Shown here in pieces: positions 94-63,237 of a stretch of DNA of 64,000 bases; within the stretch, counting starts at the first letter, position 1, and each line of letters begins with the position of its first letter. Both the position numbers and the translations under genes were made by a program. The DNA lies in contig JAOTRV010000019.1 in the NCBI GenBank assembly GCA_030247575.1, positions 13,336 through 77,335 on the forward strand, read 5' to 3'. Origin of the DNA: Sulfuritalea sp. (GTDB taxonomy: Bacteria > Pseudomonadota > Gammaproteobacteria > Burkholderiales > Rhodocyclaceae). Below the pieces are notes generated by a model that had not been told where the DNA came from, did not search any database, and saw nothing but the letters and a program-made list of their open reading frames with translations.

Positions 94-114
94 GTCGACG
101 CCGGCGATACGGCG
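94..114 (+). repeat. Interspersed 21-nt motif, copy A (GTCGACGCCGGCGATACGGCG)
   Basis: Intergenic, 14 nt downstream of the nirD stop. Confidence 0.7.
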
Positions 115-127
115 CGGTACGCGCCGA

Positions 128-439
128 TCACTTCAGCCGCAGCCACACATCCCCGCCTTCCAGCTTGACGGCGAAGGTTTTGGCACAGCCCTTGTCCGGC
201 GCCACGGCTTCGCCATCCTTGAGGCCGATCTTCATGCCGTGCAGCGGACAGGTCACCGCGTTGCCGTGCACGATGCCCTGCGACAGGGGGCCGCCCTTGT
301 GCGGGCACTTGTCGTGCAGGCCGAAGACCTGGTCGGCCGCGGTGCGGAAGATGGCGATGTCGCCCTGGCTCGACGCCACCACGCGACTGCCCTGCGGCGC
401 GATCTCGTCGAGCGCGCAAACCCTGATCCAGCCAGTCAC
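128..439 (-). CDS. nirD: Nitrite reductase [NAD(P)H] small subunit (Rieske-type NirD)
   Basis: C-terminal 103 aa of the 128..1612 frame reads VTGWIRVCALDEI...CPHKGGPLSQG...CPLHG, which is Rieske-like. A GTG start overlaps the nirB stop (GTGA). The gene lies directly downstream of nirB. Confidence 0.88.
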   Translation of the reverse strand: MTGWIRVCALDEIAPQGSRVVASSQGDIAIFRTAADQVFGLHDKCPHKGGPLSQGIVHGNAVTCPLHGMKIGLKDGEAVAPDKGCAKTFAVKLEGGDVWLRLK

Positions 440-60293: not shown

Positions 60294-60867
60294 AGCGAAA
60301 CAGCGAAGGCGGCAGCACGGGGTTGGCCTCGAACTGGGTGAAGCGCAGCACCGTCACCTGGCCGAAGCTGTCGTGGATTTCCATGCTCACCGGGCGATTG
60401 GCGGCGAAGCCGATCTTCATGCTCTCGAAGCTGGCGTCGCCGCCCTTGGGCTTGGCTTCGACGAATTCAAGGCCATCCGCGGCAGCGCCCTCCTTGAGTT
60501 CGAAATGCTTGTCGAGGTCCTGCCCGGCGAGCAGTGCGGCCGGACTGGCGCCGAAGGCCGAGCCGAGCTTCTTCACCGCAACCTGATTGAGTTCGGGGTC
60601 GTAACTCCACAGCTTGTTGCCATCGCTGACCAGCAGCTGCTTGTAGGGCTTTTCGTAGGACCAGCAGAACTTGCCCGGGCGCTGCAGGGCGAAAATGCCC
60701 GCCGACTGCTGCGGCTTGCGACCCGATTTGGAAATCGCCGTCTGCGCGAACACGCCGCGCGCGCTGCGGTTGGTTTCGAGGAAGGTCTTGAGCTGGTCGA
60801 GGCCGGCAGCCGATGCCGGTACAGCGAGGCAGGCAAGGAGGCCAAAAAAACAGAGTAGTCGCTTCAT
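60256..60867 (-). CDS. lolA: Outer-membrane lipoprotein carrier protein LolA
   Basis: 203 aa from MKRLLCFFGLLACLAVPASA. Conserved ftsK-lolA-rarA-serS order. 38-nt overlap with rarA. Confidence 0.85.
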   Translation of the reverse strand: MKRLLCFFGLLACLAVPASAAGLDQLKTFLETNRSARGVFAQTAISKSGRKPQQSAGIFALQRPGKFCWSYEKPYKQLLVSDGNKLWSYDPELNQVAVKKLGSAFGASPAALLAGQDLDKHFELKEGAAADGLEFVEAKPKGGDASFESMKIGFAANRPVSMEIHDSFGQVTVLRFTQFEANPVLPPSLFRFVAPAGADVVGD

Positions 60868-60918
60868 GGGGCAATTATCCCCGATGCCACCCCGGTGCGG
60901 CACGCTTTATTCCGCGCT

Positions 60919-63237
60919 TTACTCGGACCTGCTTGGCGCGATGACCTCGCGCCCGCCCGCGCCGTTCATGGGCGTGACGAGTCCGGCCTTTTCCATGGCT
61001 TCGATCAGGCGCGCGGCGCGGTTGTAGCCGATGCGCAGATTGCGCTGCACCAGCGAGATCGAGGGCCGCCGCGTTTTCAGCACCACTTCGACAGCCTGGT
61101 CGTACATCGGATCGCTTTCCGCGTCGCCCGCCGCCGTGTCGCCGGCGCCGACTTCCGAGTCCTCGCTCGTGGGACCATCGAGCAGGCCGTCAATATAGTC
61201 GGGCGGCCCGACCTTCTTCAGGTGATCGACGACGTGATGCACTTCCTCGTCGGCGACGAAGGCGCCGTGCACCCGGATCGGCAGCCCGGTGCCCGGCGCC
61301 AGGAACAGCATGTCGCCCTGGCCGAGCAGCGCTTCGGCGCCCATCTGGTCGAGGATGGTGCGCGAATCGATCTTGCTCGATACCTGGAAGGCGATGCGCG
61401 TCGGGATGTTGGCCTTGATCAGGCCGGTGATCACGTCGACGCTGGGCCGCTGCGTGGCGAGGATCAGGTGAATACCGGAGGCGCGCGCCTTCTGCGCCAG
61501 GCGCGCAATCAGTTCTTCGATCTTCTTGCCCACCACCATCATCAGGTCGGCCAGCTCGTCGATCACGACCACGATGTAGGGCATGGTTTCCAGGGGCTCG
61601 GGGCCGATGTCCGTATTTGCGGTCAGCGAGAAAGGATTGGGGATGTGCTCGCCGGCCTTCGTCGCCTCGTTGATCTTGCTGTTGAAACCGGAAAGATTAC
61701 GCACGCCGAGCGCCGACATCAGCTTGTAGCGCCGCTCCATTTCGCCGACGCACCAGTGCAGCGCATTGGCGGCCTTGGTCATGTCGGTCACCACCGGCGC
61801 CAGCAGGTGCGGAATGCCTTCGTAGATCGACAGCTCCAGCATCTTGGGGTCGACCATGATCATGCGCACGTCCTTGGGCTCGGACTTGTAGATCAGCGAA
61901 AGGATCATCGCGTTGACCCCGACCGACTTGCCCGAGCCCGTGGTGCCTGCCACCAGCAGATGCGGCATCTTCGCCAGATCGACCACCACGGGCTGGCCGC
62001 CGATGTCCTTGCCGAGCGCCACGGATAATGGCGAATGCATGCCGTGGTAGGCCTGCGAGCCGATGATTTCCGACAGTCGCACGATCTGCCGCCGCGGATT
62101 GGGCAATTCCAGCGCCATGCACGACTTGCCCGGCACCGTCTCGACCACGCGGATCGACACCAGCGACAGGGCGCGCGCCAGGTCTTTCGCCAGGCCGACG
62201 ATCTGGCTGCCCTTGACCCCGACCGCCGGTTCGATCTCATAGCGCGTCACCACCGGCCCCGGATGGGCCGTCAGCACCTTGGCCTCGACGTTGAAGTCGG
62301 CCAGCTTGCGCTCGATCAGGCGCGAAGTGAATTCGAGGGTTTCGGGCGCCGGCATGTCGGCCGGGTTGTGCACCGGCTCGGCGAGCAGGTGCAACGGCGG
62401 CAGCGCGCCGCCGGGTGCGTCGAAGAACAGCGGCTGCTGGCGCTCCTTCTCCGCCCGCGCGACCGCCTTGGGTGCAACCGGCACGACGATTTCGACCGGC
62501 TCTATCCGCAGCGGCGGCAGCGGACTTTCCTCGACCTTGCGCCGCTCCGTCTCGACCACTTCCTCGCGCTGTTCGGCCACGGCGCGCCCGTAGCGACGAT
62601 CCTGCCAGCCGTCCCACAGGCTGCGCAGGCCGACATAGGCGCCTTCGAGCAGGATGCCGGCCTTTTCGGCAATGGTTATCCACGAGGCGCCGGTAAACAG
62701 GCTGAATCCGATCATCGCCAGTGCCAGCAAAATCAGGGTGCCGCCGGTGTAGCCGAGAAACAGCGTCATGTAATGACTGACTTCGCTGCCGAGCATGCCG
62801 CCGGGAGCAAGCGGCAGCGCGAGTTTCAGGCTCCAGAAGCGCATCGCTTCCAGCCCGCAACTGGCCAGCAGGAGCAGGACGAAGCCTGCCAGGGCAATCA
62901 GCAGGGAACGCCGGTCACCGCCGAACAGGTGGCTCAGGCGGTGGTAGCCCCATGCAAGGAGGAAAAAAGGCAGGGCCACCCACCACCAGGCGGAAAGCCC
63001 GAACAGATACAGCAGCAGATCGCTCAGCCAGGCACCGAAGCGGCCGCCGGGATTGGCGATGCGCTCGACCGTCGCCGCATGCGACCAGCCCGGATCGGTC
63101 CGTTCGAAACCCCAGAGCACGAGGCCCAGATACAACCCGACGAGACCGACCAGCAGCCAGCGCGCCTCATGCACCAGCAAGGCGATTTTCTCGGGCAACG
63201 GAGTCGGAACGGATTCGGATGCGCTGACGGCACTCAT
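60919..63237 (-). CDS. ftsK: DNA translocase FtsK
   Basis: 772 aa with an N-terminal 4-TM domain, the motor domain (GTTGSGKSV, Walker [11 protein letters not shown]) and a C-terminal gamma wHTH ([20 protein letters not shown]). Confidence 0.95.
61132..61152 (-). repeat. Interspersed motif, copy P (revcomp GTCGGCGCCGGCGACACGGCG)
   Basis: Inside the ftsK linker before the gamma domain, on the sense strand. It encodes VGAGDTA. Confidence 0.75.

Follow-up and report, generated by a model that had tools for sequence, protein, structure and literature searches.

This study concerns a 64,000-nucleotide (nt) stretch of the genome of Sulfuritalea sp. (contig JAOTRV010000019.1, positions 13,336 to 77,335; hereafter the window) and a short DNA motif that recurs along it, both in the gaps between genes and inside conserved genes. 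The window carries, in order, a nirD-like Rieske gene, a DUF3079 gene, a toxin-antitoxin pair, a lapA-like gene, a VWA-domain gene, ctaA (COX15), a defence island, convergent fliT and M48 peptidase genes, rdgC, flhC, a TonB-like gene, ygiQ, an integrative island at a tRNA-Ser gene, rarA/mgsA and ftsK. The motif is a genuine, undescribed, family-wide word that is under constraint at the level of DNA. Its copies in the window are listed below; comparison loci from other genomes are labelled L with a number.

94-114, +: GTCGACGCCGGCG variant; intergenic, 13 nt past the stop of the nirD-like Rieske gene (128-439, -)
12455-12475, +: intergenic, 25 nt after the DUF3079 gene
13295-13315, +: intergenic, 32 nt past the stop of the higA-like helix-turn-helix (HTH) gene (13348-13671, -)
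14079-14099, +: variant; intergenic, between the start of the higB-like gene and the stop of the lapA-like gene
15043-15063, +: variant; near the 3' end of a small unannotated open reading frame (ORF; 14776-15090), sense frame 0, VDAGGTA
17788-17808, +: weak copy with four mismatches and the AAA flank; antisense in the VWA-domain gene
22067-22087, -: within ctaA; antisense, RAVPPAPT, in a loop
22642-22662, +: exact consensus; intergenic, ctaA/hsdM gap
24104-24124, +: hsdM, sense frame 0, VGAGETA; segment unaligned to solved HsdM structures
34830-34850, -: gap between the convergent fliT and M48 peptidase genes
36664-36684, +: intergenic, rdgC/flhC gap; same site kept in L119
43024-43044, +: variant; antisense in the Pro/Ala-rich linker of the TonB-like gene, AVAPAST; orthologous copy in L118
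44673-44693, +: hypervariable loop of ygiQ, KVGAGDTA
46005-46054, +: interrupted copy in the C-terminal tail of ygiQ; AAGT, a 27-nt hairpin-element fragment (46009-46035, in frame), then CGGCGCCGGCGACACGGCG; uninterrupted orthologues in L119, L120, L122 and L123
46718-46738, +: exact consensus; intergenic, at the edge of the tRNA-Ser integrative island
50008-50028, -: island DUF927 primase/helicase-like gene, sense frame 0, VGAGDTA, interdomain linker
50315-50335, -: same DUF927 gene, sense frame 2 (SALAGR), without the AAA flank
52004-52024, +: intergenic, inside the tRNA-Ser island
59586-59606, +: degenerate, four mismatches (three in L119); antisense in rarA/mgsA, RVVSAD
61132-61152, -: ftsK linker directly before the gamma domain, VGAGDTA

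A discrete bipartite word

Alignment of 259 copies from the window and related genomes yields the 25-nt bipartite consensus RAAA-GTCGGCGCYGGCG-(G/A)N-ACGGCG. The word opens with R-A-R-A, a 5' flank that is kept although it lay outside every search pattern, and continues with GTCGGCGCYGGCG, a variable dinucleotide that separates the two boxes, and ACGGCG. Twenty-one positions are strongly conserved in addition to the 4-nt A-rich flank, nothing is conserved beyond the 25 nt in these aligned copies, and a 3' ATTC is weak outside the window. The query GTCGGCGCTGGCGGGACGGCG at three or fewer mismatches matches the window 15 times, against 0.01 expected from dinucleotide-preserving shuffles of the same sequence; the copies at 94 and 43024 are GTCGACGCCGGCG variants at two mismatches, that at 59586 is a four-mismatch copy, and counting variants brings the total to about 19. 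An earlier reading of the bare sequence (the sequence-only reading) had counted 17 copies, 13 of them on the plus strand; its positions and its strand count hold, but it missed the minus-strand copy at 50315. A further copy, at 46005-46054, is interrupted. A match at 5315, which has no 5' flank, is probably chance.

Sites that carry the 8-mer seed GTCGGCGC show either the full 25-nt motif or unrelated sequence, i.e. the word is discrete. In related genomes, position 9 is T in 176 copies and C in 80, position 5 is G in 236 and A in 21, and the variant positions are linked in a subfamily-like manner. The two subfamilies proposed earlier have only limited meaning: positions 5 and 9 do vary, but the GTCGAC-GCC form also arises by chance, without the AAA flank, in unrelated high-GC phyla.

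The motif forms no hairpin: its DNA folds at -5.1 and -1.5 kcal/mol on the two strands, with z-scores of -0.8 and +0.9 against shuffled sequence, in agreement with the earlier statement that it is neither a repetitive extragenic palindrome (REP) or bacterial interspersed mosaic element (BIME) nor a terminator. An Rfam scan of the window returned only tRNA-Ser and int-alpA RNA, with nothing at the motif, and a full-text literature search for the motif string had no match, in line with the earlier view that the element is undescribed. Readings as a sigma-54 or sigma-70 promoter or as a G-quadruplex were dropped by eye, key positions being misfit or unconserved.

Lineage, placement and history of the copies

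The motif is confined to one bacterial family. The window's YgiQ shares 91% identity with the Sulfuritalea hydrogenivorans protein and 93-94% with its counterparts in Sulfuritalea metagenome-assembled genomes (MAGs). A scan for the degenerate 21-mer, covering one representative genome per species, found at least 117 loci, and among the matches listed nearly all belong to Sulfuritalea, Sulfurisoma or MAGs labelled Rhodocyclaceae. The motif is present in Rugosibacter too, and the three motif-bearing genera (Sulfuritalea, Sulfurisoma and Rugosibacter) are all Sterolibacteriaceae. Isolated matches in Actinomycetota, Planctomycetota and other phyla are attributed to chance, because they lack the AAA flank and mostly represent the codon string GTC-GAC-GCC-GGC. 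The window has 2.7 copies per 10 kb. In 86 motif-bearing loci the figure is 1.4 per 10 kb, not counting the copy by which each locus was found; a control of 80 metagenomic loci from outgroup Betaproteobacteria of equally high GC (ygiQ at most 81% identical, GC up to 0.70) contained a single copy in 1.02 Mb. These figures bear out the earlier claim of a very dense, lineage-specific motif, whose copy number per genome in Sterolibacteriaceae is put at hundreds up to about a thousand.

Placement with respect to genes follows clear rules. With genes called by a codon-usage model, 210 copies in multi-copy loci could be placed: 129 (61%) fall in coding sequence, against 86% coding DNA, which is about 10 standard deviations under expectation, and the remaining 39% are intergenic, against 14% non-coding DNA. 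Coding copies are concentrated in few frames (56, 3 and 14 in sense frames 0, 1 and 2; 26, 3 and 27 in the antisense frames) and are located in the hypervariable YgiQ loop, the FtsK and TonB linkers, an ABC-ATPase linker and the unaligned HsdM segment. The sequence-only reading had described just this, a few frames in permissive loops. Sense copies in four genes (hsdM, ygiQ, ftsK and the primase-like DUF927 gene) encode VGAG(D/E)TA, and antisense copies give RAVPPAPT in ctaA and AVAPAST in the TonB linker. Intergenic copies prefer convergent (21) and tandem (36) gaps to divergent ones (7). Their proposed position shortly past stop codons holds for nirD, DUF3079, higA, lapA-like, ctaA, fliT/M48 and flhC (8-106 nt), but the copies at 46718 and 52004 do not fit it. 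Of the copies in tandem gaps, 15 lie on the transcribed strand and 21 on the opposite one, making an RNA-level role unlikely.

Constraint acts on the DNA word rather than on the encoded peptide. Among the 56 copies in sense frame 0, the Ala codon GCT is used in 32 (57%), against 5% of Ala codons in these genomes (p ~ 7e-20), and intergenic copies share the T preference at the GCT site (62:17); the retention of GCT together with this intergenic preference points to the DNA itself. Protein-level selection of VGAGDTA was rejected on the same codon test and on the use of multiple reading frames. Similarly, a hairpin or terminator reading was rejected on folding and on a terminator scan, which found no excess of terminator-like sites near copies; downstream complementarity at copies showed no general excess either. 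At one locus (L105, 1363-1409), two copies face each other as a perfect inverted repeat of 21 bp; with its 5-nt loop and its AAAA/TTTT flanks, the pair resembles a bidirectional intrinsic terminator. No gene family recurs near copies: clustering of 660 proteins from motif-bearing loci gave generic paralogue families only.

The copies are old and remain at orthologous sites. The comparison drew on five further loci that are syntenic with 34-46 kb and 56-64 kb of the window, and in this block five to six of seven window copies occur at the same sites in S. hydrogenivorans and in a species whose YgiQ is 80% identical. The sites that recur across species with 80-93% identical YgiQ are the YgiQ loop, the YgiQ C-terminus, RarA, the FtsK linker, the TonB linker and the rdgC-flhC gap. 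The YgiQ loop copy is found in most of 120 orthologues and in all six orthologous DNA loci (four intact, two interrupted), and KVGAG(D/G/E)TA is kept among these orthologues while the surrounding loop varies freely. Some YgiQ lineages carry a decayed motif of the same length, i.e. decay proceeds by substitution. In the outgroup the loop spans a hypervariable 53-96 residues with nothing motif-like; as its length is hypervariable in all Betaproteobacteria, this loop cannot decide on an origin by insertion. The RarA copy, kept in L118, L119 and L121, is more informative: compared with Escherichia coli RarA (PDB 3pvs) it shows no indel, existing codons having been replaced, and it therefore arose by substitution. 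An insertion origin of the coding copies was rejected, RarA speaking against it and the YgiQ loop being uninformative. The FtsK linker copy is intact in L119 and split by 9 nt in S. hydrogenivorans (L118).

Mobile DNA and insertions inside the motif

The motif also occurs on mobile DNA. Three regions of the window are described first.

46155-56228: 10-kb integrative island at tRNA-Ser(CGA) (56139-56228), missing from the syntenic loci L118, L119 and L121; encodes a tyrosine integrase (54742-55974), int-alpA RNA (53322-53403), RadC and the DUF927 primase/helicase-like protein, with 124-nt inverted repeats (47337-47460 and 48027-48150) rich in CCCCGG(A/T)AT iteron-like units, and 97-nt direct repeats at 46929 and 47197
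22727-32479: defence island; a type I restriction-modification system (hsdM, hsdS, hsdR) with two genes lying within it, one for a GmrSD type IV restriction enzyme and one for a Fic protein
12539-14036: a low-GC ORF (12539-13204, -) that matches no Pfam family, and a HigB/HigA-like toxin-antitoxin pair (Gp49 plus HTH_37); both lie in a stretch with four motif copies in 2.6 kb

The defence island holds a single motif copy in its 9.8 kb, and its GC content is slightly below that of its surroundings. Genuine copies were found on at least 120 phage-like contigs of IMG/VR, mostly a single copy per locus, with an AAA or GAA flank in 123 of 151 and a density about 5-fold under that of host loci. In 21 phage-like loci (L206, L210, L222, L223, L225, L230 and 15 other IMG/VR loci) the motif runs on into a conserved extension of 31 nt, GTGCAGGGCGACATGCTTTTGCCTGCCAACG, behind which lies an imperfect hairpin; the conserved module measures 56 nt. 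It usually lies at the 3' end of an N6/N4 DNA methylase gene, in a few contigs with unrelated upstream sequence, and the extension was found in none of the host loci. A phage packaging site was considered and rejected, the module's neighbours being DNA methylase and radical-SAM genes with no terminase.

Integron-type cassettes provide a further setting. In a Sulfuritalea MAG (L056 1-6122; contig JALHPU010000019.1, 80-86 kb), a cassette array has about 10 attC-like sites (R'' GCCCAAC ... R' GTTGGGC) 450-650 nt apart, and several cassettes without a credible ORF carry one to three motif copies; all nine copies of the array lie on one strand. A second integron-like array, on an IMG/VR contig (L253, about 880-2300), consists of five tandem ORF-less units of about 316 nt, each with the motif followed by an attC-like GCCTAAC ... 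GTTAGGC, again in a single orientation.

The motif is in turn interrupted by other short elements. A double-hairpin mini-element, TTATG-[9-bp stem]-GGTATCCCC-YGGY-GGGAT (DNA fold z = -3.8), has no credible family in Rfam, and its TATCCC...GGGATA palindrome recalls repeats of the dRS3/NTS type (PMC11893778). Its occurrences, and the further in-frame insertions that split the 5' box (GTCGGCGCTGGC) from the 3' box (ACGGCG) at the variable dinucleotide, are as follows.

Mini-element fragments inside motif copies: window 46009-46035; L121 6392-6418; L118 about 1996-2031
Free mini-element copies, away from the motif: L052 about 1050-1100; L011 about 3920-3970
Insertions at the variable dinucleotide: L118 ftsK, +9 nt; L122 10807-10839 in ygiQ, +33 nt; L121 6431-6454, +24 nt (related sequence in L090)

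Three different motif copies thus hold a related mini-element fragment of 27-36 nt, in frame and all at the bond AAAGT^CGGCGC, and their orthologues are uninterrupted. The motif supplies about 10-15% of RAAGTY sites, so these AAAGT^C insertions may reflect a target preference for a rare A/T-rich pentamer. Repeated insertion at one bond nevertheless keeps a mobile-element reading of the motif alive.

Competing explanations and known repeat systems

We tentatively favor the possibility that the motif is an uptake-signal-like self-recognition word of Sterolibacteriaceae. On this view, motif-bearing DNA would be preferred by a DNA-binding protein peculiar to the lineage, perhaps a part of the competence or type IV pilus uptake machinery, and fragments with the motif would enter cells and recombine at a higher rate. 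Point substitutions giving rise to a copy, or improving one, would then spread wherever the local sequence tolerates them, namely in intergenic regions at gene ends and in protein loops and linkers in codon-compatible frames. The outcome would be a ‘self’ tag on the DNA of the family, including resident islands, prophages and integron cassettes. To our knowledge, sequence-specific DNA uptake is known from only two families, both of host-associated bacteria, and the origin and maintenance of uptake words are still debated. That the motif represents a third, independently evolved family of uptake or self-recognition words, the first in free-living environmental bacteria, with a long bipartite 25-bp word found also on islands, prophages and ORF-less cassettes, is a more doubtful proposition still. 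A literature search found no work on competence in the motif-bearing family.

A 25-base family-wide word in abundant freshwater and wastewater sulfur-oxidising denitrifiers would offer a new system for models of drive versus selection, a highly specific tag by which metagenomic contigs, phages and cassettes could be traced to this host family, and a pull-down handle on the protein that reads it. Were the motif not an uptake word, it would be stranger yet: a non-hairpin sequence of 25 nt, conserved in about a thousand copies, for which no mechanism is known.

Several observations weigh against an uptake-like word. It is bipartite and twice as long as known uptake words: its conserved part spans 21-25 nt, against 9-12 nt in the core of DNA uptake sequences (DUS) and uptake signal sequences (USS), and it is hard to see how drive alone could maintain so much information. 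Its overall density is about 1 per 3.5-7 kb, against 1 per kb for uptake words, and match quality is bimodal, not graded. The inverted pair of L105 stands alone among about 200 copies, and the tRNA-Ser island carries four copies in about 5.5 kb, which is full host-like density. Conservation at synonymous sites of orthologous motif codons is only marginally above background (0.82 vs 0.73, p = 0.07). Furthermore, USS and DUS are reported to be orientation-neutral, whereas neighbouring motif copies lie on the same strand in a ratio of 89:52 (p = 0.002), or 68:45 when the window and L056 are left out, and copies in the window are spaced no more evenly than random placement would give (coefficient of variation 1.04 vs 0.94).

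Such regional strand coherence, of which some is present, suits a different and rather unlikely explanation, in which the motif is the site of a lineage-specific chromosomal protein with a part in replication-oriented processes, be it the control of recombination as with Chi, the guidance of a translocase as with the FtsK-orienting polar sequences (KOPS), the organisation of the nucleoid, or a ‘self’ mark read by a defence or repair nuclease. Selection would maintain the copies, and mobile elements would copy the mark to pass as self, which would accommodate the genuine copies on phage-like contigs, one of them in the conserved 56-nt module, as well as the fixed orientation in ORF-less integron cassettes. 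The coherence of 89:52 implies a local bias of about 72-76%, and all copies counted in the window are split 16 to 5 between the plus and minus strands. Agreement of orientation with gene-corrected GC skew is, however, only 119:91 (57:43). Called genes of the window and the motif-bearing loci have, taken together, a GC skew of -0.027, i.e. their coding strand is rich in C, so local skew in 8-kb pieces reflects gene orientation more than the direction of replication, which limits any inference about replichores. In the window most motif copies lie on the plus strand, which is C-rich, the opposite of Chi.

The Chi comparison itself has two attractions. The E. coli Chi sequence is GCTGGTGG, and its density there is similar to the motif's 1 per 3.5-7 kb; the motif core contains GCTGGCGG, one base from Chi. 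Elsewhere in the window GCTGGCGG is 2.5-fold over-represented with no strand skew (11:13), leaving a Chi-like core unsupported, and its last base coincides with the motif's variable position. Known polar motifs are 5-8 nt long, not 25, avoidance of coding DNA and of divergent promoters is unexpected for Chi or KOPS, and no gene family recurs beside the copies among the clustered proteins. The KOPS- or Chi-like alternative raised in the sequence-only reading on the basis of strand bias is weak so far: the word has 25 nt instead of 8, skew agreement is slight and the strand is mostly the C-rich one.

Less probable again is that the motif is itself a tiny copy-and-paste element, or derived from one, that spreads by insertion or short-patch templated conversion and not by point mutation, or that it is the ‘empty site’ of one, an A/T-rich target (AAAGT) with a fixed 20-nt flank used by IS200/IS605-like hairpin mini-elements. 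Bimodal match quality and linked variant positions would follow naturally from copying, and ORF-less integron cassettes loaded with copies also fit, as do the three independent hairpin-fragment insertions at the same bond in different copies, given the small share of RAAGTY sites that the motif supplies, and the further in-frame insertions between the boxes. The mini-element occurs away from the motif too, however, and the motif itself has no terminal inverted repeats, target duplications or conservation past 25 nt. Moreover, 61% of copies are coding and in frame, the RarA copy arose without length change, copies are stable across species with 80-94% identical YgiQ and decay by substitution, and no transposase or RAYT-like gene was associated with them among the 660 clustered proteins. 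Finally, an RNA- or protein-level signal, such as a 3'-untranslated-region or terminator element or a selected flexible peptide VGAGDTA, would agree with the many intergenic copies just past stop codons and with the small-residue linker peptide that sense copies encode, but it is essentially excluded by the 15:21 split in tandem gaps, by the lack of secondary structure and of a terminator-site excess nearby, and by the use of one DNA word in four frames and on both strands with a rare codon kept against codon usage.

Comparison with known systems returns us to the uptake-like word. The properties listed for USS and DUS comprise under-representation in coding DNA, codon-usage frame bias, location in poorly conserved segments, orthologous conservation, origin by substitution, terminator-like inverted pairs and lower density in phages (PMC2817400). 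The uptake analogy drawn in the sequence-only reading finds a counterpart for each of these in the motif, but fails on core length and on the frequency of inverted pairs. The Pasteurellaceae USS has a 9-nt core, AAGTGCGGT, inside an extended consensus of roughly 29 nt. Like the motif, it is a non-palindromic word of one family, with hundreds to thousands of copies of which about 61-65% lie in ORFs, a frame bias driven by codon usage, poorly conserved protein segments and conserved orthologous sites. Its occasional inverted pairs act as terminators, whereas the motif's pair is only terminator-like. Both have an extended, partly bipartite consensus that opens with an A-run and then AAGT; a relationship in sequence cannot be claimed. 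Unlike USS, the motif has 21 strongly conserved positions instead of 9 and a 3- to 6-fold lower density, and it is a GC-rich word of a GC-rich free-living betaproteobacterium with modest local strand coherence.

The Neisseriaceae DUS (10-12 nt, with dialects and the receptor ComP) shares with the motif its occurrence in Betaproteobacteria, a family-wide ‘self’ word with species variants, enrichment at gene ends, under-representation in coding DNA and lower frequency in foreign islands and phage DNA. It differs in being short, far denser and very often arranged in inverted terminator pairs, and the only sequence shared, the hexamer GCCGTC, is meaningless at 65% GC.

Other repeats resemble the motif in fewer respects. 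REP/BIME elements and REPINs, which are mobilised by RAYT proteins, are also abundant short repeats at gene ends that form mosaics with other short modules; REPs, however, are imperfect palindromes that lie only outside genes, mostly as inverted pairs, and are linked to a RAYT gene, whereas the motif has no hairpin and lies in genes in 61% of cases. Membership was rejected on the missing stable hairpin and on the 129 of 210 copies inside predicted genes, in frame. A miniature inverted-repeat transposable element (MITE) or other insertion-derived repeat was likewise rejected, as nothing is conserved past 25 nt, RarA shows no indel and decay is by substitution. Neisseria dRS3/NTS repeats, hundreds of oriented repeats of roughly 30 nt, influence transformation and are used by mobile DNA as insertion sites, and hairpins of the NTS and Ssn-related motif (SRM) type flank the gene of a GIY-YIG nuclease that cleaves them in single-stranded form (PMC11893778). 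High copy number, orientation and use as an insertion site are common to dRS3/NTS and the motif, which differs in having neither hairpin nor associated gene; the second, hairpin-type element (TATCCCC...GGGATA) is closer to SRMs than the motif is. Membership among Ssn-related motifs was rejected for the want of a hairpin and of a recurrent neighbour family among the 660 proteins, and the strategy of associating genes with motifs in the search for a partner protein (PMC11893778) is directly applicable to the motif. Chi and KOPS resemble it in density, in some strand coherence and in the Chi-like GCTGGCGG, but they are 8 nt long, strongly replichore-polarised and not excluded from coding DNA, whereas the motif has 25 nt and apparently weak polarity. 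Taken together, the properties of the motif match DUS and USS better than REP, MITE, Chi or KOPS.

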